Part shown: one piece after another, positions 42,958 to 54,493 of the stretch
Layout of the letters: each line of letters opens with the position of its first letter
How positions within the stretch are numbered: position 1 is the first letter of the stretch
DNA from: Candidatus Omnitrophota bacterium
GTDB taxonomy: Bacteria; Omnitrophota; Gorgyraeia; Gygaellales; Profunditerraquicolaceae
DNA: 55,353 nt
Assembly (NCBI GenBank): GCA_043807505.1
Contig: JAZDFW010000089.1
Coordinates: 1-55,353 of the forward strand
Direction: 5' to 3'
Translations under genes and position numbers: made by a program
The notes under the pieces: model-generated
Seen by the model: the letters and a program-made list of their open reading frames with translations, nothing else
What the model was told of the DNA's origin: nothing
The model's database searches: none

Positions 42958-43701
42958 TTATTTTTGAGTTTCATCCAAAATACGAATAAGCGGTTCTTCC
43001 CAGCCAAAACAGGTAATCCCTATACCAATAAGTGCCTTAAACGCCTCAATGCATTCGGGGTCAATTTGCACGAACTCTTCAAGCATCCGTACAACCTCAT
43101 TCATAAATCCACCCACAATACCATTCGAGTCGTCTACACCGCCGACGCGTAACTTTTTATCCAGCCGTAAAAGTAGTTTTACCAGAATTTCAGCCGCCTG
43201 CCTGTTAACCGGCAAATCAGAAACTACCGCCGATAGCATATTGCATCCTTCACGCAGCGAATCCTGATTCGCAAACCAGGTGCGCGACGGCCCACTGTAT
43301 GGTTTGATATACCGTAAGGCCTCAGTGATAGATTTTTTAACCACGGTTAACTCTTCTTTATTTATCGCTCTCTGCTGCCTACTGCACTCGACCTGATGAT
43401 CAAGTTCCTTGTCTTTATCGTTTAAGGGGCGGCCAGCCATGACAACATGGAGTGCTAAAGCCACTATATGTTTGCAAAGCGTATCTTTTTCACCAAGATA
43501 GCAAGTACAACTTCCGTGTTTATAATTTCGGGCCGATACTGAAACCCGATAAGGCCTTGTCCCCAAGACAACAGCGGTATAATTCCCACCCCACTCCTCA
43601 ACTTCTGTCACCTTACCGCTTTCATATAAACCCACCGCGCGCTGGAATGTTGCCTCGTCGGTCGCAAATTTAATTTTGTTAAGGTCGTATGATAGAATCA
43701 T
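42958..43701 (-). CDS. SWIM zinc-finger protein, function unknown
   Basis: CTCYLGEKDTLCKHIVAL fits the SWIM pattern CxCx(n)CxH. The helical C-terminal region is unassigned. Confidence 0.65.
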   Translation of the reverse strand: MILSYDLNKIKFATDEATFQRAVGLYESGKVTEVEEWGGNYTAVVLGTRPYRVSVSARNYKHGSCTCYLGEKDTLCKHIVALALHVVMAGRPLNDKDKELDHQVECSRQQRAINKEELTVVKKSITEALRYIKPYSGPSRTWFANQDSLREGCNMLSAVVSDLPVNRQAAEILVKLLLRLDKKLRVGGVDDSNGIVGGFMNEVVRMLEEFVQIDPECIEAFKALIGIGITCFGWEEPLIRILDETQK

Positions 43702-43708
43702 AATTTTT

Positions 43709-43966
43709 TCATTCCCATGGCAACTTTGGCAGTTTATTTAATGCCTTAACAAATCTGCTATGATCAAATGGCTGTTGCTGCTTTAACACATCGAAAATTT
43801 CACTACTGACTACACATCCTATTAACCGCCTGGCCTCTTGTTCAGAAATACCACCTGCGACAAGCCGGTTATACGTCTCTTTGGTTTCCGGTGGATCTAG
43901 GTCCTTCAATTGCTTATCAACAACCTCTAATATCACCTGCTTTAAAACGAAACTAGTCTTGGCCAT
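43709..43966 (-). CDS. small hypothetical protein (possibly DUF1841-like)
   Basis: 85-aa ORF with a good GGGAGG RBS, 7 nt upstream of the SWIM gene. The resemblance to the C-terminal half of DUF1841 is from memory only. Confidence 0.45.
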   Translation of the reverse strand: MAKTSFVLKQVILEVVDKQLKDLDPPETKETYNRLVAGGISEQEARRLIGCVVSSEIFDVLKQQQPFDHSRFVKALNKLPKLPWE

Positions 43967-43996: not shown

Positions 43997-44063
43997 AATT
44001 CTGGGGACATCATACTTAATTCTGAATTATGTAATGTGTCCCCGGAATTCTTCCCCGGAATTC
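43997..44063. repeat. inverted-repeat element, copy A (~54 bp plus a tandemly duplicated right arm)
   Basis: AATTCTGGGGACATCATACTTA (43997-44018), 16 nt, then TGTGTCCCCGGAATTC (44035-44050). The arms are reverse complements of each other. CCCCGGAATTC is repeated at 44053-44063. Confidence 0.85.
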
Positions 44064-44252
44064 CCAGACTATCGGCGAATGTAAGCAGGCCGTTGCTTCA
44101 CTTATCATCATTGACTCCAGCTTCCTGCTATCAAAGAACAAGGAACTCGCCGCTTCTTTATACAATATCAAGTCGGAACGGTTTAAGAAAAAACTAGAAA
44201 ACTAACAAAGTACTGCAGTTCAAATAAAAACTCACTTATTCAACTACAAATG

Positions 44253-45590
44253 TCATATTCTGGGAATATGATGGAAAACAACTGAGTTTCCAATTTTTAG
44301 TTTCTCAATGAATTTTCCAGCTTTTTTTCGTTTTCTATTATTTGGACTAGTTAATTTTAATGATTTCTCAAACTCTTTTTCATCAATAAACTTCTCAGTG
44401 TTAATCTCGTTGTAATAGCAAAATAGTGGCACATGTTTTAATTTAGTATCAGCAAACATCGCGCCATTAAATAAATAAAGCCCCGTTAAGTATCCTTCTA
44501 AATAAGAATGCTCAAGCCAATTTAGTTTATATTTCTTTACAAGGCTCTCGTATGCATTAATCGAATTTAATAAATACTTAGTACACAGGGATTTTCCTCC
44601 TTTGACTTTATTTATCAAATATTGGAATGCATGCAAGATGCCATCTTGGTAAGAGAGACAATAAATAATCTCCGGGAATTTAGTATGTTTATACTTCCTT
44701 GATGTTATATCATGTCTTCTTAGGACATATTCTTGTATTGATAATACCTTAGATAAATTTTCCAAAGGCAATAAACATCCTTTTTGCTCAAACCTTTTTC
44801 TTAATTGACGAATAAAATAACTTCCTTCAGTATAAATCGGTTTCAAATTATATTTAATCCAGTTCTTTTCATTGGATCTATCTAGCGTAACAACATAGGC
44901 CTGTCTTCGAAAATCGCCCATTTTACTCGAGATGTATTTGTAAATTCTTTGGAAATCCTCATCTTGGAATGAATATCCAATAAAAACAATAATATTTTGA
45001 GCTAGAAATAATTTCAATTTGCTCCCAATTGTATTCCTATTTAATTCTCGATAGCATCTTTTGTAATCTTCTTCTGTCGCAACAATAGATCCTAAGTCAT
45101 TTATCGAACCGTGGATTTTCAGAACTCTTCTACTTGAGGTATTCCAGAATGGAACATCAGTGTCATACACAAAGGGAGTAGCATTTGATATGGTTTCTAA
45201 GAAATCGTCCCAATTGGTTGTAACGAGATTTTCAACGCAAGGAAAAACAGAAATTTCTTCATGAAATTCAGTAGCTCGGTTAAATAATTCAGGCCATGCT
45301 TTAAAATAATCGAGTCTTTCTCTAATTTTATTAATTAAAGGTGCTCTACTTCCAAATTTTTTAACATGTAAACTCATTACTTTGGAAAATGAAAGAGCTT
45401 TATTGTTTTTTAATTTAAGCTCAACAAGAACGCTTTCATAAAAAGTATCAGGAAATACTCTTTTTGCCTCCGTGCTGATGCCTGCTCCAATGAACAAAAC
45501 TACGTCGTGAATTTCATTGATAATCTCTTCTGGCAAGACGAATTCAATATAATCCCGACATGTCTTACAATCTTTATTAAATTTTTTCAT
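44253..45590 (-). CDS. SIR2-family (SIR2_2/DHS-like NAD-binding, defence-type NADase) protein with an unassigned C-terminal domain
   Basis: VVLFIGAGIST glycine-rich loop, TTNWDD (catalytic Asn context), VLKIHGSINDLGSIVATEEDY (catalytic His) and VFIGYSFQDEDF. 445 aa. Confidence 0.75.
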   Translation of the reverse strand: MKKFNKDCKTCRDYIEFVLPEEIINEIHDVVLFIGAGISTEAKRVFPDTFYESVLVELKLKNNKALSFSKVMSLHVKKFGSRAPLINKIRERLDYFKAWPELFNRATEFHEEISVFPCVENLVTTNWDDFLETISNATPFVYDTDVPFWNTSSRRVLKIHGSINDLGSIVATEEDYKRCYRELNRNTIGSKLKLFLAQNIIVFIGYSFQDEDFQRIYKYISSKMGDFRRQAYVVTLDRSNEKNWIKYNLKPIYTEGSYFIRQLRKRFEQKGCLLPLENLSKVLSIQEYVLRRHDITSRKYKHTKFPEIIYCLSYQDGILHAFQYLINKVKGGKSLCTKYLLNSINAYESLVKKYKLNWLEHSYLEGYLTGLYLFNGAMFADTKLKHVPLFCYYNEINTEKFIDEKEFEKSLKLTSPNNRKRKKAGKFIEKLKIGNSVVFHHIPRI

Positions 45591-45877
45591 ATAATTCTGG
45601 GGACATCATACTTACCTTTCTCAATTAAGTATTGTGTCCCCCAAATTCCATTGCTTAGATCTTGAGTTCGCAAATCATCTCGCCATTGAGAACTACTCCA
45701 TCTTCTTTGGTCTATTTTTTCTTTCTCCTCTGATTGTAATAGCAACGCAATATTGCCTAGAATAATTAGAATGACGAAGAGAATTTTCCACCTTAAAGAC
45801 AATATTTTTTTATAATCAAAGGACATCCTACTAGTTATTATCGCGCTCAATAAAAATATTGCTATGATAGCAAACAT
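45587..45877 (-). CDS. small two-TM membrane protein translationally coupled to the SIR2 gene
   Basis: Two hydrophobic helices (FAIIAIFLLSAIIT and WKILFVILIILGNIALLL). An AGAGGAAAG RBS is present and the stop overlaps the SIR2 start (ATGA). The last ~19 codons are encoded by repeat copy B. Confidence 0.55.
   Translation of the reverse strand: MFAIIAIFLLSAIITSRMSFDYKKILSLRWKILFVILIILGNIALLLQSEEKEKIDQRRWSSSQWRDDLRTQDLSNGIWGTQYLIEKGKYDVPRII
45593..45649. repeat. inverted-repeat element, copy B
   Basis: An identical 22-mer, AATTCTGGGGACATCATACTTA (45593-45614), then 18 nt, then TGTGTCCCCCAAATTCC (45633-45649). Confidence 0.85.
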
Positions 45878-46041
45878 CTTTCCTCTATCAATTACCCCTT
45901 TTAATAATTATATCCCGAATATCTCATTTATCTTAGCCTTCCACTCATTCTCATAAATTACCTTAAACTCAAATTTATTGAAAACTATGGACCGTTTCTA
46001 TCTATCGAAGCCCGAAGTGTCCCCTAGTTTCATTTTGACAA

Positions 46042-47580
46042 TCACAAAGTTGCTTCATTTAATGTCATCTTTTCTTCAAGACCATAAACAAATTTATCTA
46101 TATTTGAAATTCTTACTTCAAAGCCATCATTTTTTATAAATTTAAAGTAGCGTTCGGTATCAATGAAAGATTTAGGAGAAATGAACACAGCGTACGACTT
46201 AACACCATTTTTAATATATTCCTCAAGGTGCCTTTGCACCGAAAACGACTCTCTAATATGTTGTTGCGTACCTGTAAGTAAAGTAACTTCTATTAAAACC
46301 GTGTCCTCGTCTTCCAAGCATTCAATATCAGGATTCCCGCCCGATGCAAAACTCGTCGGTAAACCCTCGTCATCCGAGACAAAATTTGGTTTTACTGTTA
46401 CATTTGGTAATTTTTTAAGAATAGCCAGAGAAGTTAAAAATTCCAAACGCAAAGGCTGATCTATAATTTTCAGAATATTATCTCGGGAAGATTTTTTCTG
46501 CGCTAAATTAAGCATTTCAGTCCTAATTACTTCCCACTCGTAATGATTTACCCATTTTTCTAGTTCTATCTTGGTAGTTCTAATAGGTGCTTTATACACT
46601 GAAAGTGTAGCAATTAAATTGGCATCAACCGCTCCGATATAATCAAAAAAATCTTTTTCAGCCGTAAACGTTGGATAGGAAATATAATTTTCTAAAATAT
46701 AGCTTATCGCTGTTATCTCTTTTGTATTAATGTCAATAAAACGACCGCCGCCACGCAAAGAAATTAACCCAGTTAAACGCATTTTACGAATAAAATCATC
46801 AGGGTAATCGCCTAAAATAGAATTATCATCTCGCTTAGTTTCATTGAGTAGTTTATAACAAAGCTTCAAAATAGTTTCATTACTCGGCGAAAAGCCATAT
46901 TTTTTACGCAATTTTTTTATTTCCCGATATAGACTATTCGCATTATCGTTTTTCCAACACAACAATAAAGGAACTTCCAATCTTGAAATGCCTGCACCGT
47001 TAAAATCGGCATCTTTGTTTAAAAGTTTAATTGTCTGTATTAATAGAATTAAGGGCACATTTTTATTTAAAACTTTACGAAACGGATTTTGACGTTGATA
47101 TTTTGCAAAAGCATTAGCAAAAACCATTAATTCGTGTTCAGGTTTTTCTTTATCTAATAACATTTTTCCACTTTCAGAAAATTTTATTTGCTCGTTTTGC
47201 CAATACCAAACAAAGCCTAATTCTTTGGCTATTTTAAACCAAGTATCAAATCTTGACGGCCAACCTTTATCAAAACCTGCTTCCTTATGGCTTTGTGGAT
47301 TATTAATAAATGCTTGTTCGGTTTCTATTTTGCTTAATTCTACCTCATTTTTCCATTTATTCTTTATGCATAGAGAGACCTTCATAGGACGATACAAGCC
47401 TTTTTGAATCAAAACCTTGGCTACTTTTTCGATAATTTTATTCGTCAAAATTTTGCCATCATGCTCACTAAGAATTGTTAAAAAATCCTTTAATCGTTCA
47501 GGATTTCTTATTGTTGTCGTAAATAATAAAGGCTTATATTCGGATTGGCGTTTTTTCATAGTTTTAATAATTAGTAACAA
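46042..47580 (-). CDS. putative restriction endonuclease, AlwI-family-like (type IIS-type); family assignment tentative
   Basis: It lies last in an operon with two m6A methyltransferases. The N-terminal LLFTTTIRNPERLKDFL resembles the AlwI-family N-terminus as I recall it. The C-terminal GGNPDIECL...VLIEVTLL is a PD...E-x-K-like core. An alternative start exists at M8 (47559). Confidence 0.5.
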   Translation of the reverse strand: MLLIIKTMKKRQSEYKPLLFTTTIRNPERLKDFLTILSEHDGKILTNKIIEKVAKVLIQKGLYRPMKVSLCIKNKWKNEVELSKIETEQAFINNPQSHKEAGFDKGWPSRFDTWFKIAKELGFVWYWQNEQIKFSESGKMLLDKEKPEHELMVFANAFAKYQRQNPFRKVLNKNVPLILLIQTIKLLNKDADFNGAGISRLEVPLLLCWKNDNANSLYREIKKLRKKYGFSPSNETILKLCYKLLNETKRDDNSILGDYPDDFIRKMRLTGLISLRGGGRFIDINTKEITAISYILENYISYPTFTAEKDFFDYIGAVDANLIATLSVYKAPIRTTKIELEKWVNHYEWEVIRTEMLNLAQKKSSRDNILKIIDQPLRLEFLTSLAILKKLPNVTVKPNFVSDDEGLPTSFASGGNPDIECLEDEDTVLIEVTLLTGTQQHIRESFSVQRHLEEYIKNGVKSYAVFISPKSFIDTERYFKFIKNDGFEVRISNIDKFVYGLEEKMTLNEATL

Positions 47581-48469
47581 GGATCTCTTTAATTTTCTTT
47601 TTTCCGTTATTATGATAACTAATATAATTACTTTTTATTTTGTAAATTTTGTATTTATTCATCCATTTAATCAACGCATCATTTTTACTCCCGTTATAAT
47701 GCGTTACATTTGACAATGCAAATCGTACAGATTTTTTATTTAAATTATCAATTAAGTTTAGTAAATCAGATTCAGATTTCTGATCCCAAAATTTATTATA
47801 TTCACTCGCAGCTATTAAATAAGGGGGGTCTAAATAAACAAAATCATTTGCTGAAAATTTTATTTCAGAAAAAAAACTTCTAAAATCTTTTGAACTCAAT
47901 GCTGTCTTTTTATCTTGTACAAAATAAAAATAATTGTTTAAAGCATTAACAACATTTTTATTAAAATCGACATTTCCCACTGGGAGATTAAATCGACCCC
48001 CGCCATTGAATCTCAACATTCTGTTAAAACCATATATAAGCAAAATATACAAAATTAAAGGGTCATTATCATTATTTTTATTGACACGGTCTCTTAATTT
48101 TTCGTAGCCCTCTTTGTTGAATCTTGCATAATAAGTTTTTTCCCATTCTTTTTTTAGTGAATCCGGAATTACATCTTCTTTAAATGACCTAGATAGATTA
48201 TATTTGTATATTATTTTTTCAACACTTTTAAAAAAACGAATTGGATTCTTTGAATTTTCAATTAAAAATCGGTGTATGTTAATAAGGTTTTGATCTATGT
48301 CATTTAAAGAATACCTTTTTGCCTTGATATTTAAGAAAACGGTGCCACCACCAACAAAGGGTTCATAAAAATGATTTATTTCTTGCGGAAATAAATCAAT
48401 CAATTGTTTCATCAATTTATATTTATCTCCGACATAAAACAATGGGGATCTTTTAATTTTACTAAACAT
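47564..48469 (-). CDS. Dam-like (D12 class, alpha group) N6-adenine DNA methyltransferase
   Basis: FYVGDKYKL, EPFVGGGTVFLN (FxGxG) and YLDPPY (motif IV). 301 aa. Confidence 0.88.
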   Translation of the reverse strand: MFSKIKRSPLFYVGDKYKLMKQLIDLFPQEINHFYEPFVGGGTVFLNIKAKRYSLNDIDQNLINIHRFLIENSKNPIRFFKSVEKIIYKYNLSRSFKEDVIPDSLKKEWEKTYYARFNKEGYEKLRDRVNKNNDNDPLILYILLIYGFNRMLRFNGGGRFNLPVGNVDFNKNVVNALNNYFYFVQDKKTALSSKDFRSFFSEIKFSANDFVYLDPPYLIAASEYNKFWDQKSESDLLNLIDNLNKKSVRFALSNVTHYNGSKNDALIKWMNKYKIYKIKSNYISYHNNGKKKIKEILVTNY

Positions 48470-50276
48470 GGTTAATTTTTGTTACAAATAGATATTCTTT
48501 ATGGTTTTTAAATTCAGTATTGCCTGCGTTAAAATGTCTATATTCTTTTTCAAAAACCTTGGTTTCACCTTTTGCCGTCAAAATATTTTTAATTTCTTGG
48601 AGAGTAATTTTGTTTTTTGACGAGTTGCTTTTAGAAGCGTACGTATTATTATATGACACCACTAAATATTTTGCGTTAATATCTTTTACCAGCTCAGCAA
48701 GCTTATTTTTGGCTTGCACTCTACAATAATCGCTCATATTTTCAGAATCGGGCTTCAGTGCTGTACCGTATAATTTTGGCTTATCCCATTTGGTTAAAGT
48801 TTCTAGTACATGATAAAATCTGCTATACTGCCTCGAATTATACGGCGGATCAACATAAACTATATCTGCTCTGATTTTCTTCACCAACAGATTTGCATCT
48901 TCTCTAAAAATAGTTGCATTTTTTACATTTATCGGATCTATGGGCTTCATAAAAAATCCATCCTCAATGTAATCTTTTTTGAAATACGCATCGTAGTGGC
49001 CAACAGTATTAGCTATTTTATCAATTGAATATAATAGAGACGCCATAAGAATATAGTATTCTTTACTCGTTAAATTCTTTTTGTTTTCTTCAATATTTTC
49101 TCTGATAAATCCAATAATTTTAGATGATTTATGACTAAAATACTTACCTCCAAAATATTCGGAGAAATAATTATCTTCTAAATTTTCGCTATCAATATTA
49201 TTGTAGTCCTTAATAATATTACTGATTTTGTCTTTGTCCCATTTACCCTTACCAAAAAAAGCTTGATAAATTGCATGATTAGAGTGTAAAAAATCATTTA
49301 ATATGACCTCTTCAAAATGCCTCGCTGCAACAGCAGACACGACTCCAGTACCTGCAAAAATATCAGCAAAAGAATTTCCCTTCTCACATTCTTTGTTAAT
49401 TATAGAAAAAATCCACTCTATCAATTTATGCTTGCTGCCAATATACCTGCGGTTTTGTAGTTGGAGATGATTTTTTCTTATTTGCGGAATATAAAAATAT
49501 GTCTCCTTTACCTTTTCTGCATTTATTTCATAAGCGGGTTTTTCAATTTCCAGTAAATTAAAAAATGTTGTTTGTATTTCATCGGATACATAATCGAGAT
49601 TTTTATCTTTAATTTTTAATTTTTCATAAAAACTATAGCTCCCATTATTTACTGTAATAATAAAATCTAAAACAGCAATCCCCATTATTTCTCCTGCCTG
49701 AGATATTTTCTTAACAATCTCAATGTCTTTTCCACTTGGAGTTGAGACTCCCGATGGGTGGTTATGAATTAAAATAATACTTGCAGCATTAATTTCTACT
49801 GCTGGATAAAAAACTTCTCTTGGATGTATCAAGCTTTTATCGAGTAAACCAATACTTATAGTTTCTTTTTTGATTAAAATATTTCTTGCATTAAGGTACA
49901 GACAAACTAAATACTCCTTTTTCTTATCTCTCAAATCATAGGTAAGCGATAGAACATCCTTGTGATTCTTTATTATGACTTCATTTCCTTTTTCTTCTTC
50001 ATAAAACCTTTTTACTAAAGAAATTGCGGAAACTATTTGTAACGCTTTAACTTGTCCAATGCCTGGAATTTCTAACAAATTACCGACTTCAATATTCAAA
50101 AAACTTTTACCAAATTTTTTTATAATGTGTTCTGAAAGCTGCCTAACATTTTTACCCTTAATTCCACTTCCAAGTAATATTGCCAAGAGATCGCTTTTGG
50201 AAAGAGCATCTGCTCCTTTTTTTAGAAATCTTTCCCGCGGACGATCCACAAGAGGAATATCTTTGATTTTTGTCAT
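48462..50276 (-). CDS. fusion of a full-length RadC/JAB (MPN) domain protein to a D12-class N6-adenine DNA methyltransferase
   Basis: Residues 1-~225 give PLVDRPRERFLKKGADALSKSDLLAILLGSG, an HhH, and HNHPSG (JAMM motif). The C-half gives RYIGSKHKL, FAGTGVVS (FxGxG) and VYVDPPYNSRQY (DPPY). Confidence 0.85.
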   Translation of the reverse strand: MTKIKDIPLVDRPRERFLKKGADALSKSDLLAILLGSGIKGKNVRQLSEHIIKKFGKSFLNIEVGNLLEIPGIGQVKALQIVSAISLVKRFYEEEKGNEVIIKNHKDVLSLTYDLRDKKKEYLVCLYLNARNILIKKETISIGLLDKSLIHPREVFYPAVEINAASIILIHNHPSGVSTPSGKDIEIVKKISQAGEIMGIAVLDFIITVNNGSYSFYEKLKIKDKNLDYVSDEIQTTFFNLLEIEKPAYEINAEKVKETYFYIPQIRKNHLQLQNRRYIGSKHKLIEWIFSIINKECEKGNSFADIFAGTGVVSAVAARHFEEVILNDFLHSNHAIYQAFFGKGKWDKDKISNIIKDYNNIDSENLEDNYFSEYFGGKYFSHKSSKIIGFIRENIEENKKNLTSKEYYILMASLLYSIDKIANTVGHYDAYFKKDYIEDGFFMKPIDPINVKNATIFREDANLLVKKIRADIVYVDPPYNSRQYSRFYHVLETLTKWDKPKLYGTALKPDSENMSDYCRVQAKNKLAELVKDINAKYLVVSYNNTYASKSNSSKNKITLQEIKNILTAKGETKVFEKEYRHFNAGNTEFKNHKEYLFVTKINHV

Positions 50277-50303
50277 TCTTTACCTACCTTGCTATCTACT
50301 AAA

Positions 50304-50800: not shown

Positions 50801-52093
50801 TTATAGAAAAAATTCCTCGCCATCTTTTAGTATCAGTACATTTTTGAAAAGTACCGGATATTCTTCAGCCTCAAAGGTATGTATTGGTATAAGCGTCTTA
50901 GGATTTATGCCACTAGCAAATGATTCAAGATCTTCTTTTGTGGCATGGCCGCTTGTATGAACGTATTCTACAGATAACCCCTTGTCTTTACAAAATGCCC
51001 TAAATCCTTCGGAAAGATATCCATCCCACATAGAATATGCTATCTTAGCACCTGCCACATCCTTAATTTTATTTAAAAACAATGGAAAGACGGAATTATC
51101 ACGCGCAAGCATAAGAATTCTATTCTTGTTCCTACTAATTTCGGGCATTTCAATCTTTCTTTTGTTGTAGATATAGAGCAAGTCTATGTGGCCCGCTCTT
51201 TCAAGCGCCTTCGCATGGGTATTAAGAAACTTGACTCTAATATTCTTCCAATTAAACTGAGGAATTCGATCAGAGACTTTTTTGAGTTTATCCAGAATAA
51301 AAGCTGTATAAATATCAATGACGAAGATTGAATCAGTCTTAAGGCACGCTCTGTATGCCGAGACAATTCTGTCGATATTCTGAGATGAAGTAAAGAAAAA
51401 GGTTATATTCTTTCTTTCCCTCAGAATTTCCTCAAGCCGGTTTTCAACATCTCCCTCAGCTTTATACTGAGCATCCTCTCTGCCAAGCGCTGAACCCTCC
51501 ATAAGCAAACAGTCTATATTCTGGGGTGGACTCTTAATAATCTGCTTAAATAATTTAGCTTTTCTCCCATGGGCTCTAAAATCTCCGGAATAAAATAGCC
51601 TCTTTCCATCTGCCTCAATCAGGAAGGCAAAGGCATCAAAAGCAGAGTGATCAACCAGAAACGGCTGAATGATAAAATCACCTATTCTAAACCGCTTCTT
51701 ATTGCTGATTATGTTTGTATTTATCTTGCCGACTTTGGTGGGGACAAAGATATTGGAAACGTCTATAAGAATGCCGGCGCCTCGACTTAAATAAATCGGT
51801 ATTTCCGGATTAACATATTGAAGAAAACCGTAATGATCAAGGTGAGAATGAGAAATCAATATTCCGTCTATCTCTTTTTTCTCATCCTTATAGAGCCCCT
51901 TTATGTCGGGAAGGATACCTTGTGCCCTGAGATCCTGTATTGTCTTACCTTTGAGCAAATTCGCATCAAATGGTTTACAGTCACGAGTGACCAAGGGAAT
52001 GCCGAAATCAATCAATATCCTATTGTTAGCCGCCTTTAGCTCAACACAACTTCCGCCTATTTCATGAGTACCACGGTGAACGATTATTTTCAT
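50801..52093 (-). CDS. metallo-beta-lactamase-fold nuclease of the beta-CASP type (RNase J/SNM1-like)
   Basis: SHSHLDHYG (HxHxDH), VDHS and YSGDF, a beta-CASP insert, HTSGHA (motif B) and IPIHT (motif C). 430 aa. Confidence 0.75.
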   Translation of the reverse strand: MKIIVHRGTHEIGGSCVELKAANNRILIDFGIPLVTRDCKPFDANLLKGKTIQDLRAQGILPDIKGLYKDEKKEIDGILISHSHLDHYGFLQYVNPEIPIYLSRGAGILIDVSNIFVPTKVGKINTNIISNKKRFRIGDFIIQPFLVDHSAFDAFAFLIEADGKRLFYSGDFRAHGRKAKLFKQIIKSPPQNIDCLLMEGSALGREDAQYKAEGDVENRLEEILRERKNITFFFTSSQNIDRIVSAYRACLKTDSIFVIDIYTAFILDKLKKVSDRIPQFNWKNIRVKFLNTHAKALERAGHIDLLYIYNKRKIEMPEISRNKNRILMLARDNSVFPLFLNKIKDVAGAKIAYSMWDGYLSEGFRAFCKDKGLSVEYVHTSGHATKEDLESFASGINPKTLIPIHTFEAEEYPVLFKNVLILKDGEEFFL

Positions 52094-52986
52094 ATATTAA
52101 ACGGGTTTCCGTCAGGATTTTCCCACCAACGAGATGGCAATTCAATTATTCTGAGCTTCACTTGGCCTTTAAGCGGCCATTCAGGTATTTTGTGTGGTTT
52201 TATTACTACTGCAATTGCTTCAATGCCTTTTTGACTAAAATCATAATTGCCTAAAGGCATATAGTGTTCTCTTATCATTTCTTCAGGGGTACCTAACTCC
52301 GGATCAAACTTACTTCCACTATGCAAAAACCAGTTTGAATAATCTTGCAGTTCATTGATAGCGGTACTTAAATTGTAATCTTTCTTCAATTCTACTATTA
52401 CACTTTTTCCATCTCTGTTAAGACTAAATAAATCAATATGAAAAGCTCTTCTTCTCGTCTTTGACGGTTTTACTACTACTGGAACTTGTGAAACCACATT
52501 ACTCAAATCTGTGTTAATACCTAGATGCTCCCGGGCACGTTTCCCTCCTTCAGTGTCAGATAAAATCAGGCTTTCAAGCCAATGTTCCATCGAAAACCCG
52601 GGGATCATTCGTTTCTGTCTCGGGTGCTCTACAAAATCAGGCCGCTCCATAATTGGCTGTACAATTTTCAAGAATTCACTTACTTTATCTAAGGTTTGGC
52701 CTTCTGATATTTTTAAAGCTCTCCTTACTTTACTATTTCTGACTTCTAAAGTAAGTTTATACTTATTCTCAGAAGTAAGCTGCAATAACTCAAGTCCGCA
52801 ATACCTAAAACTAATATGCTTACTAACAAATGCTAATCTTGGCGTTACCACAAGATTTTTGCCATCAATAAATGGTTGAAAGAGATCTTCAACCTCTTTT
52901 ATCCGCTCTTGCGTTATTTTCCATCCGGCCTCCTGAAACTCTTTGGTTTGGACGGTTTGTATAGCAAAATAGTTGAATAGGCTCAT
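52090..52986 (-). CDS. protein with a C-terminal NucS/DUF91-like PD-(D/E)xK nuclease domain; N-terminal domain unknown
   Basis: EHWLESLIL...HIDLFSLNRDGKSVIVELKKDYNLSTAINELQDY matches the E...D...E-x-K...Q..Y layout of NucS-type nucleases. Its stop overlaps the MBL start (4 nt). Confidence 0.55.
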   Translation of the reverse strand: MSLFNYFAIQTVQTKEFQEAGWKITQERIKEVEDLFQPFIDGKNLVVTPRLAFVSKHISFRYCGLELLQLTSENKYKLTLEVRNSKVRRALKISEGQTLDKVSEFLKIVQPIMERPDFVEHPRQKRMIPGFSMEHWLESLILSDTEGGKRAREHLGINTDLSNVVSQVPVVVKPSKTRRRAFHIDLFSLNRDGKSVIVELKKDYNLSTAINELQDYSNWFLHSGSKFDPELGTPEEMIREHYMPLGNYDFSQKGIEAIAVVIKPHKIPEWPLKGQVKLRIIELPSRWWENPDGNPFNI

Positions 52987-53002
52987 AGTTTTCCCAAATT
53001 TA

Positions 53003-54493
53003 TTATTTAGAAGATATATTACCCAGCGAATCCAATATTTCTATCATACCCTTTGTATCTAAATCACAATACTTCTCAAGAGCGGCACGGATGCGCTGAC
53101 GCTCCTTTTCGGCAACTTCTTTCCCAAAAGTTACCCGACAATACTCAATACTCGCCATCCCACCATCAGCTATTTCCATGTTATTGTAGTTCGATTTTGT
53201 CATTACAGGGAGAACGCTCTTGAGCGAAGCGCTCCCTGCTTGGTCTGGATGGTAATAAAGAAAACCTCGGAAAGGTGTAAGTAGATCAACAACGCGCTCC
53301 TCCACCGATGTCACCCATCCTTGATACTCAGGATATGCCTCGCTTGCATGCCGAAGCGTTGTCTTCTCAAACGTAGCGTTGTAAGCAATAACTGATCCTG
53401 AATTTCCTAACAACGCTTTTAATTGCTTTAGAATCTCAGGTCTTGGGTCTTTATCCCCGGGCGCAAGATATGAGTGGTGCTCGGGTTTCATGCCTTTCTC
53501 TTTGATTACATATAAAGAATATTGAAAAGGGATCGCTTCAAACGGCCTAGAATTATCATAAGCAGGTATTGCCGGGTTAATCGTTTCGAAATCAAGGAAA
53601 TAAAGAGGGTACTCTAACGTGTATAGAAAGTCCTTTATCCCTTTCTTATCAACGTGAGGAAGGTTTGTTTTACAACATTTGACCTGGATACTCTGCTTAT
53701 CGCTCAGTTTTACATCGTCTTTGATATCGGCAATACTCAATACCCCGCGCTCTAATAGCTCATAGGCCTTCTTTTTACCCGAATACAAACAAAAGATATC
53801 ACCTTTTTCAGGCAGAAAGCCCCAACATATATCCTCAAGCGGACATGGATATGGGCTATCACAATGCGGACCTACTTTTACTTGCAACGCATCCTGTTTC
53901 TTTATTATCTCAAGCATATCGGCTATGTTTTGCTCTATTTCCGGAATGAGCTCATCGCATTGTTTAGTGACATCTTCTGTGGCAAATAGTTTCTTCGGCT
54001 CTATCGCTCCTTTACGCACATATTGGTTATTGATATACATGAGGTAACACTTGCGGATCTTCAGGCCTGAGCCTTCATATAAATACTTTTGAAAGGCGAC
54101 GTCATTATAATGCTCATCCTTTACGCTGCTGGAGCTTTTCACTTCAATGAGATCCCATGCGCCCTTCTCAACTGGGTTAAGTATATCGGCTAGGGCATAG
54201 CCTTGTTTATGCACAAAACATGCTTCAAAAAGAGGTTTTCGAAGCTTGGCGGCCTCCAAAGACTTTGTTGCCTGTTTAGCTGGATCATAGTCTCTTCCGA
54301 GAACAATGCCACCGGGAAAGAGTGTATGTGCTAGCTTTCCGACAACCGTGCCTTGATCCATTATAGCCTGTGTAGCAGCATCAATCTCCGGCAGGTCTTC
54401 CTTGCGGTTATACTCATACCATAGAAGCTTATGGCATTTAAGCCCTTCGAGGTATTTAGTTTTGGACAAAAATGGAGATGGTCTATTTTTCAT
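53003..54493 (-). CDS. DUF2779-type protein: Cas4/RecB-like PD-(D/E)xK nuclease (with Cys cluster) plus a C-terminal RNase H/DnaQ-like domain
   Basis: LSKTKYLEGLKCHKLLWYEY is a DUF2779-type N-terminus. Also DLIEVKSSS (D..E-x-K), CDSPYPCPLEDIC (3 Cys, plus the N-terminal Cys as in Cas4/AddB Fe-S nucleases) and YFLDFETINPAIP...PFQYS. Confidence 0.7.
   Translation of the reverse strand: MKNRPSPFLSKTKYLEGLKCHKLLWYEYNRKEDLPEIDAATQAIMDQGTVVGKLAHTLFPGGIVLGRDYDPAKQATKSLEAAKLRKPLFEACFVHKQGYALADILNPVEKGAWDLIEVKSSSSVKDEHYNDVAFQKYLYEGSGLKIRKCYLMYINNQYVRKGAIEPKKLFATEDVTKQCDELIPEIEQNIADMLEIIKKQDALQVKVGPHCDSPYPCPLEDICWGFLPEKGDIFCLYSGKKKAYELLERGVLSIADIKDDVKLSDKQSIQVKCCKTNLPHVDKKGIKDFLYTLEYPLYFLDFETINPAIPAYDNSRPFEAIPFQYSLYVIKEKGMKPEHHSYLAPGDKDPRPEILKQLKALLGNSGSVIAYNATFEKTTLRHASEAYPEYQGWVTSVEERVVDLLTPFRGFLYYHPDQAGSASLKSVLPVMTKSNYNNMEIADGGMASIEYCRVTFGKEVAEKERQRIRAALEKYCDLDTKGMIEILDSLGNISSK

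Follow-up and report, generated by a model that had tools for sequence, protein, structure and literature searches.

A compact stand-alone SIR2 protein of a Candidatus Omnitrophota bacterium as a candidate single-gene NADase defence protein

The DNA analyzed here, contig JAZDFW010000089.1 of a Candidatus Omnitrophota bacterium (GenBank assembly GCA_043807505.1; 55,353 nucleotides (nt), below referred to as the window), encodes on its minus strand a SIR2_2 protein of 445 amino acids (aa). This protein represents an uncharacterised family of compact, stand-alone SIR2 proteins and may be a minimal NADase defence protein encoded by a single gene. The preferred reading, to which we assign a probability of about 0.6, is that of a single self-contained NAD+-consuming gene of the SIRim type, from an unnamed family of ~445-aa proteins spreading solo by horizontal transfer, which would act as a single-protein sensor-effector in abortive infection. 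The gene and the parts of its product are as follows.

44253-45590, minus strand: SIR2 gene, 445 aa, full length and intact (open reading frame and Pfam SIR2_2)
44790-45509, minus strand: SIR2 domain, predicted NADase, residues ~28-267 (profile and Foldseek)
44256-44789, minus strand: family-specific C-terminal domain, residues 268-445 (AlphaFold2 model and conservation)
45558-45569, minus strand: N-terminal CxxC, C8 and C11 (conservation)

The SIR2 enzyme and its family

The motifs by which a first-pass annotation of this DNA had recognized a SIR2_2 protein (GAGIS, TTNWDD, KIHGS and EEDY) are all present in the product of 44253-45590, in the form of FIGAGISTE (G35/G37), VTTNWDD (N126), KIHGS (H160) and TEEDY. 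The NAD-site residues of the SIR2 domain are G35/G37, T124-T125-N126-W127-D128 and K158-x-H160-G161. Pfam SIR2_2 (PF13289) is matched by residues 122-252 with E=8e-23 and 81.5 bits, the gathering cut-off being 24.5. The profile of 42 family sequences matches the ThsA structure 6LHX at E=5.8e-18, pairing residues 23-291 with residues 12-277 of BcThsA; N126 is paired with N112 and H160 with H152, which we take to be the residues whose mutation abolishes the NADase activity of ThsA. The next matches of this profile in the PDB are KomC and DSR2. Judged by its sequence, the 445-aa protein is a bona fide SIR2_2 (SIRim) enzyme, an assignment that by these scores lies far beyond chance, and it would be expected to have NADase activity.

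The AlphaFold2 model of the full-length protein (pLDDT 90.7, pTM 0.87), when used as a Foldseek query, returns defence NADases only, all of them via the SIR2 domain (KomC at 7e-10, ThsA at 2.5e-9, DSR2 at 4e-9). Among PADLOC profiles the protein matches PDC-S25 (2e-20), ThsA (2.8e-18, residues 29-271) and LmuA (4e-13), but these profiles, as well as those of Dsr, are confined to the SIR2 core, and no NCBIfam match was found. In these comparisons, the earlier statement that the protein fits no named system is borne out. In the alignment, no Cys position within residues 28-267 is conserved at the level of 90% or more, which is compatible with a missing Cys4 module, and C8 and C11 lie outside the Rossmann fold. 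The absence of the Cys4 zinc module and of the acyl-lysine site of classical sirtuins defines the SIRim clade, which is enriched near defence systems and has been proposed to be largely immune (bioRxiv 10.1101/2024.09.18.613514).

The search for relatives among 5.8 billion proteins yielded 402 proteins, nearly all of them full-length (430-470 aa), with identity ranging from 91% down to ~35%. Conservation was assessed in an alignment of 42 sequences that are 35-91% identical to the window protein. The G.G, N.D and HG motifs show no or almost no variation, and the predicted catalytic Asn and His, already pointed out in what was annotated as a short stand-alone SIR2 protein, are invariant in all 42 sequences. 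All 69 positions conserved in the family at 90% or more are retained in the window protein, which is therefore considered intact. Identity in distant pairs amounts to 47.6% in the SIR2 domain, compared to 28.2% in the C-terminal domain; defence proteins usually combine, in this way, a conserved effector with a regulatory or sensor part that evolves faster.

In a survey of 185,579 genomes, one per species, at least 176 relatives were found (a lower bound, limited by the search pattern), and 80 loci were retained. The distribution is patchy and spans bacteria and archaea: the hosts include Omnitrophota, Dehalococcoidia, Acidobacteriota, Bacillota (Anaerococcus, Enterococcus, Listeria, Streptococcus), Gammaproteobacteria (Vibrio, Photobacterium, Shewanella, Kangiella), phyla of the Candidate Phyla Radiation, Bathyarchaeota and Nitrosopumilaceae. 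A full-length member (WP_176451518.1) is encoded by the mobilizable Corynebacterium glutamicum plasmid pCGR2, where the next annotated gene downstream encodes an N-6 DNA methylase. Other members include WP_427769790.1 of Vreelandella titanicae and proteins of Listeria farberi and Photobacterium iliopiscarium. Literature searches returned no paper describing this ~445-aa SIR2 family or its architecture. The SIR2 loci reported in S. thermophilus (PMC11514479) were considered as possible members and ruled out, being SIR2-HerA.

Among the relatives whose flanking DNA was retrieved, the four closest (91, 81, 77 and 72% identical) have unrelated surroundings. The 91% relative follows an AbiEi/AbiEii pair after a 200-nt spacer; the 81% relative lies between ruvB and recO, with RuvB encoded upstream; the 77% relative, from an Omnitrophota metagenome-assembled genome, follows a radical-SAM gene; and the 72% relative (locus L007) is located ~400 nt downstream of an apparent tRNA 3' end. 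DNA similarity between the window and these relatives begins at the ATG and fades ~35-40 nt past the stop codon. All-vs-all BLAST clustering of neighbours gave tyrosine integrase as the commonest cluster, present in 8 of 84 loci. No neighbour is recurrent: among the 150 immediate neighbours every Pfam or PADLOC family is limited to six occurrences at most, and defence-type matches are scattered (AriA 3, RmrA 3, HerA 2, AbiLi 2, also methyltransferases (MTases)). Since the contexts are unrelated and no neighbour recurs, the family is a solo, horizontally mobile gene.

Two observations concern the insertion sites of relatives. In L007 the sequence at 900-960 reads like a tRNA 3' end (GGTTCGAATCCC...), tRNA genes being typical insertion sites of genomic islands. 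In three other loci the SIR2 gene is adjoined by the GMP synthase gene (guaA), an island hotspot.

The C-terminal domain and the known SIR2 systems

The C-terminal region that has no assignment comprises 178 aa (residues 268-445), somewhat less than the ~210 aa of the first estimate. Modelled alone by AlphaFold2 (pLDDT 93.3, pTM 0.91), it folds into four long helices, a small beta-hairpin and two more helices. The best Foldseek match of the isolated domain has E=2.3 in the PDB, the library including ThsA entries, and E=0.46 in the viral library BFVD. No Pfam family is found in this domain in any of the 42 members, and the sequence profile search of the PDB gave no assignment for it. As modelled, the domain is new, having no fold match in the PDB and viral libraries; it differs from SLOG, from APAZ and from the DSR2 repeat.

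The profile of the domain was compared with 1.84 billion representatives of clusters at 50% identity, yielding 385 proteins at E<=0.001. In the best 150 of these 385 the domain is always C-terminal, and the proteins are ~430-470 aa long or are shorter and fragment-like, the single exception being a protein of 1173 aa, repetitive in sequence, in which 12 short stretches are matched. We also considered the domain as a modular sensor common to several effectors; its restriction to proteins of family length, as seen in these best 150, argues against that.

Several positions of the C-terminal part are invariant (H293, P306, Y314, D316, G317, Y363, G366), and Q315, Y367 and H440-H441-x-P443 are nearly so or invariant. 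In particular, H293 is present in 42 of 42 sequences, H440 in 38 and H441 in 40, while at the other end of the protein C8 is found in 37/37 and C11 in 38/38 of the sequences that have the N-terminus. As conserved Cys and His occur at both termini, the CxxC (C8/C11) together with H293/H320/H440/H441 suggests a putative zinc site that would tie the two ends of the protein; no site of this kind has been described in SIRim proteins.

We infer a defence role for the protein, a sensor role for its C-terminal domain, and zinc binding. The N-terminal SIR2 domain would be the NADase, with Asn126 and His160 as catalytic residues, and would be held inactive until the C-terminal helical domain senses an infection cue or shifts the oligomeric state; the putative CxxC...His zinc site may hold the latter domain against the N-terminus. 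Activation would lead to NAD+ depletion, and the infected cell would no longer support phage growth, which corresponds to abortive infection. SIR2/SIRim NADases are among the commonest types of prokaryotic immune effectors, with FAM118A/B as relatives in vertebrates. Among the structurally understood examples, most need a partner (ThsB, HerA, prokaryotic Argonaute (pAgo), KomAB) or a very large sensor (DSR2, Avs5). If the proposed reading is true, a compact 445-aa protein with a small sensor of its own would provide a minimal system for the off/on control of a SIR2 NADase, and would bring in a family that goes unrecognized as a system by PADLOC 2.0. Formation of filaments or tetramers activates ThsA, Avs5, DSR2 and FAM118B (PMC12700824).

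Comparison with individual systems shows that the 445-aa protein is not ThsA, DSR2, SIR2-HerA, pAgo-SIR2, Lamassu or PDC-S25. Consistent with the first-pass annotation, no gene for the usual partners (TIR/ThsB, HerA, pAgo, STAND) was found by Pfam and PADLOC scans within five genes on either side of the SIR2 gene.

ThsA of type I Thoeris (PDB 6LHX, 8BTO, 7UXT, 8WC0) is the best sequence match to the N-terminal 270 residues. It resembles the window protein in its aligned catalytic Asn and His, in its length (~470-480 aa), and in the combination of an N-terminal SIR2 domain with a C-terminal regulatory domain. However, the C-terminal SLOG/STALD domain of ThsA, which binds glycocyclic ADP-ribose (gcADPR), is not found in the 445-aa protein, and the latter is therefore not a ThsA variant. 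The PADLOC ThsA profiles cover residues 27-271 only, and ThsB, a TIR protein, is neither adjacent here nor recurrent in the 84 loci.

KomC of the Kongming system (PDB 8ZSF, 9XVC) is the top structural match (E=7e-10, TM-score 0.67 on the target), but it is a bare 264-aa SIR2 domain, one domain fewer than in the window protein, that uses KomA/KomB and a nucleotide signal, and no such genes are present nearby.

These two relatives raise the alternative of a Thoeris-like effector that has no sensor of its own, the C-terminal domain binding a small molecule or responding to an altered nucleotide pool, with the signal coming from a sensor elsewhere, from the phage or from host metabolism. Precedents for such signals are gcADPR for ThsA and dITP for KomC. 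The nearest relatives by sequence and structure are indeed signal-activated SIR2 effectors, and the invariant H/Y/Q/D/G set in the C-terminal domain suggests a pocket. On the other hand, neither SLOG/STALD nor another known ligand-binding fold is seen, no TIR, cyclase or deaminase partner recurs in the 84 loci, and a gene that moves alone across phyla is unlikely to need a dedicated partner encoded in trans. Weighing these points, we consider the alternative unlikely.

For the way the protein would work, DSR2 (PDB 8WY8, 8K98) is probably the closest analogue, being a single-gene SIR2 NADase with the sensor in the C-terminal extension of the same chain. DSR2 differs in size (~1000 aa) and in its long helical-repeat sensor, which binds the phage tail-tube protein; the window protein is, as had been pointed out, far shorter than DSR1/DSR2. 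Matches to DSR2 chains are limited to residues 21-241, and the C-terminal domain has no DSR2 fold match.

In PDC-S25, only profile positions 123-246 (of 517-528) are matched, by residues 106-225. The LmuA profile of Lamassu LmuA-SIR2 is matched at positions 118-236 of 433, and there is no LmuB/SMC-like neighbour. As for SIR2-HerA (Gao_Her/Nezha), the window has no HerA gene, HerA is limited to the two cases among the 150 family neighbours mentioned above, and the SIR2-HerA structure 8W9L is matched by the profile at E=0.3 only. The short pAgo-SIR2 system (SPARSA) differs in that the window protein has no Aga_SIR2 match, weak matches being present in 5 of the 42 members; no Argonaute was found among the scanned window neighbours, nor do the most frequent families listed for the 150 neighbours include one. 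The SIRim clade, including the vertebrate FAM118A/B (SIRanc), shares with the window protein Pfam SIR2_2 and the G.G / N.D / HG motifs, and a weak FAM118B profile match is observed (5e-4), but the 445-aa family has a C-terminal domain of its own and an extreme N-terminal CxxC not described for SIRim.

The upstream reading frame and the hairpin repeat

Immediately upstream of the SIR2 gene there is a 96-aa open reading frame (ORF), whose end coincides with one of two copies of a hairpin repeat.

45587-45877, minus strand: 96-aa ORFan with two hydrophobic segments, gene status unproven (ORF scan)
45593-45648, no strand given: hairpin repeat copy 2 (repeat search and folding)
43997-44050, no strand given: hairpin repeat copy 1 (repeat search and folding)

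According to the first-pass annotation, this ORF encodes a peptide with two transmembrane (TM) helices, coupled to the SIR2 effector by an ATGA overlap, that would serve as a membrane sensor or partner, and the two genes would form an abortive-infection module. A part of this description is correct. The overlap is real, the TGA of the 96-aa ORF overlapping the ATG of the SIR2 gene, and a 4-nt overlap is also used by seven real gene pairs in the window. Two hydrophobic segments were found by a Kyte-Doolittle scan (residues ~2-16 and 30-47). Situated on the coding strand, the ORF has a 450-nt gap to itself; it counts among the window's only five non-overlapping small ORFs, and an agagga motif precedes its ATG by 4 nt (upstream sequence agaggaaagATG). 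Moreover, the same arrangement is seen on two other short contigs, and the SIR2 start has no Shine-Dalgarno (SD) sequence and is buried in the hairpin, so that coupling could matter locally.

The status of the ORF as a gene was not confirmed. It has no match in Pfam, PADLOC or NCBIfam and no homologue other than itself at E<=10 among the 5.8 billion proteins, and a six-frame tblastn search with it against all loci of SIR2 homologues found no relative. An upstream ORF with two TM segments of any kind is present in only 3 of ~90 loci, these three being mutually unrelated and one of them a phospholipid methyltransferase homologue; the 91, 81, 77 and 72% relatives all lack it, and conservation of a TM ORF upstream of SIR2 homologues, as expected for a two-gene module, is thus not observed. 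The last ~20 codons of the ORF, about its C-terminal fifth, are the hairpin repeat at 45593-45648.

The hydrophobic segments were compared with those of 64 spurious-like ORFs of 60-119 aa, defined by a long gene covering more than half of their length (antisense in 61 cases). At least one TM-like segment is found in 27 of them and at least two in 4. Because TM-like segments are frequent in spurious ORFs of this AT-rich DNA, hydrophobicity is weak evidence for the 96-aa ORF being a gene; by its length and look the ORF cannot be told from one arising by chance. On the two other contigs, the 96-aa protein is identical and the SIR2 start again comes next; these contigs probably derive from the same organism, so the copies are no sign of conservation. 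A pre-insertion locus was sought with the 85-aa protein encoded downstream of the SIR2 gene (see below) and with the 96-aa ORF, but every contig with the latter has the SIR2 start next to it; upstream of the 85-aa gene, the contigs that carry it show partial genes.

Translation of the 96-aa ORF has, in our estimate, somewhat less than an even chance, and its being a functional partner of the SIR2 protein is very unlikely. The ORF is outside the system of the family, being spurious or, at most, a lineage-specific leader ORF. The two-gene module as such is highly improbable; the pairing of a membrane sensor with SIR2 is an accident of one locus and should not be propagated as a candidate system.

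The hairpin is a palindromic element of ~55 nt, AATTCT-GGGGACATCATACTTA...TGTCCCC-(G/C)(G/A)AATT. Exactly two copies are present in the 55 kb, in the same orientation and 1596 nt apart, on either side of the SIR2 gene. Copy 1 is located ~200 nt downstream of the SIR2 stop codon (folding energy dG ~-30 kcal/mol, z from -3.7 to -4.7); in copy 2 (dG from -20 to -22 kcal/mol, z from ~-4.1 to -4.4) 3 nt separate the end of the 3' arm, as read in the mRNA, from the SIR2 ATG. Strong folding is predicted for both copies, whichever strand is taken. The leaders of relatives are, instead, A-rich and unstructured.

Pattern scan of metagenome contigs with 31-68% GC identified 86 stretches with the same core (loci L091-L176), and 68 of the 79 distinct copies are intergenic. 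The core, GGGGACATCATAC...GTGTCCCC, is usually flanked by short repeats of the AATTCT/GGAATT type, giving an element of ~55-60 nt, in which the loop and the inner stem are variable and the outer stem shows compensatory changes. Rfam produced no match at the gathering score, only noise at E<=10. In these features the hairpin looks like a repetitive extragenic palindromic (REP) or miniature inverted-repeat transposable element (MITE). Two other roles were considered and rejected: an intrinsic terminator, since the region has no site with a stem and a T-run, and a part of a mobile SIR2 cassette, since homology with relatives ends at the ATG and ~40 nt past the stop codon. As the SIR2 loci of relatives have no such hairpins, the latter do not belong to the shared SIR2 unit.

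SIR2 translation at this locus could need ribosomes that read the upstream ORF through the hairpin, which would make the 96-aa ORF a leader and, therefore, not a partner. One can combine this with the zinc site in a more elaborate picture of a self-contained SIR2 immune receptor, whose fold-novel C-terminal domain, zinc-clasped to the N-terminus, would read a conserved infection cue, and which here would additionally be under the control of the REP-like hairpin and the leader ORF, translation through the hairpin and the stop/start overlap opening the SIR2 start. This picture as a whole is possible, though doubtful.

Genomic context and neighbouring genes

The setting of the family includes defence genes and mobile elements: a restriction-modification (R-M) system in the window, the AbiE pair next to the 91% relative, the plasmid DNA methylase, and integrases. 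Nevertheless, one could think of a non-immune function, in which the protein would serve regulation or housekeeping as a SIR2-like enzyme (deacylase or ADP-ribosyltransferase), or would act as the toxin of an addiction module carried by mobile elements. Housekeeping neighbours at many loci and the rarity of the family, whose function is predicted from sequence, are compatible with that. However, the protein belongs to SIR2_2/SIRim and not to the deacetylase sirtuins, and it keeps the ThsA NADase residues; the patchy distribution crosses the divide between bacteria and archaea; the defence setting just described includes a low-GC islet with R-M genes; and no antitoxin-like gene is conserved beside the SIR2 homologues in ~90 loci. 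A non-immune function is therefore regarded as quite unlikely.

Several points weigh against the preferred reading of a self-contained defence NADase as well. NADase activity and phage defence are deduced from homology and context. Many neighbours are housekeeping genes (e.g., RuvB/RecO, GMP synthase, ABC transporters), and the association with defence across the family was judged only qualitatively. The conserved residues of the C-terminal domain (H293, YQDG 314-317, Y363, GY 366-367) would fit a small-molecule pocket or a second catalytic site no less than a sensor of phage proteins. Finally, that reading offers no explanation for the presence of a hairpin copy on each side of the gene and for the occluded start codon.

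The R-M system that adjoins the SIR2 gene on its upstream side is a complete type II system.

46042-50276, minus strand: type II R-M system adjoining the SIR2 gene (Pfam, PADLOC)
46042-47580, minus strand: AlwI-family endonuclease (Pfam RE_AlwI 5.8e-42; PADLOC REase_II 2e-127)
47564-48469, minus strand: Dam-type MTase of the R-M system (Pfam MethyltransfD12)
48462-50276, minus strand: RadC-JAB::D12 MTase fusion of the R-M system (Pfam MethyltransfD12)

Both MTases match PADLOC MTase_II (5e-109 and 7.5e-128). The genes around SIR2 are all encoded by the minus strand. Downstream of the SIR2 gene there are an 85-aa ORF and a gene for a 247-aa SWIM-finger protein, followed by CspA, STAS-PilZ and LpxK. 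Overall, the genes within five positions of SIR2 encode the R-M proteins, the SWIM protein, CspA, STAS-PilZ, a metallo-beta-lactamase (MBL)-fold protein and a DUF2779 protein. The GC content is 27-34% across 44000-50300, compared to ~37-39% in the flanks, and, being lower than on both sides, makes the SIR2 gene and the R-M system look like an acquired defence islet. No tRNA genes are present in the window, and the promoter scan was uninformative (11 sites, with 10.7 expected).

The RadC-JAB::D12 fusion is a 604-aa protein in which a full RadC (UPF0758 N-terminal domain and JAB; Pfam 3e-35 and 1e-34, NCBIfam RadC 4e-62) is joined to a D12-class N6-adenine methyltransferase. This architecture is unusual for an AlwI-type system with two MTases.

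The 85-aa ORF and the SWIM gene occupy 42958-43966 (minus strand). The former has a strong SD sequence (gggagg), and the 247-aa SWIM-zinc-finger protein follows after 7 nt; its N-terminus (residues 5-91) matches the PADLOC candidate PDC-S62 (3e-18, profile of 566 positions). The local GC content of this pair is 43-46%, above that of the surroundings. The two genes may represent a candidate defence pair, acquired and distinct from the SIR2 gene that they adjoin.

On the other side, upstream of the R-M system, the genes at 50801-54493 (minus strand) encode a 430-aa MBL-fold/RMMBL hydrolase, an unassigned 298-aa protein and the 496-aa DUF2779 protein, the last with a weak match to Cas4-like nucleases. 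These genes may extend the defence or mobile islet.

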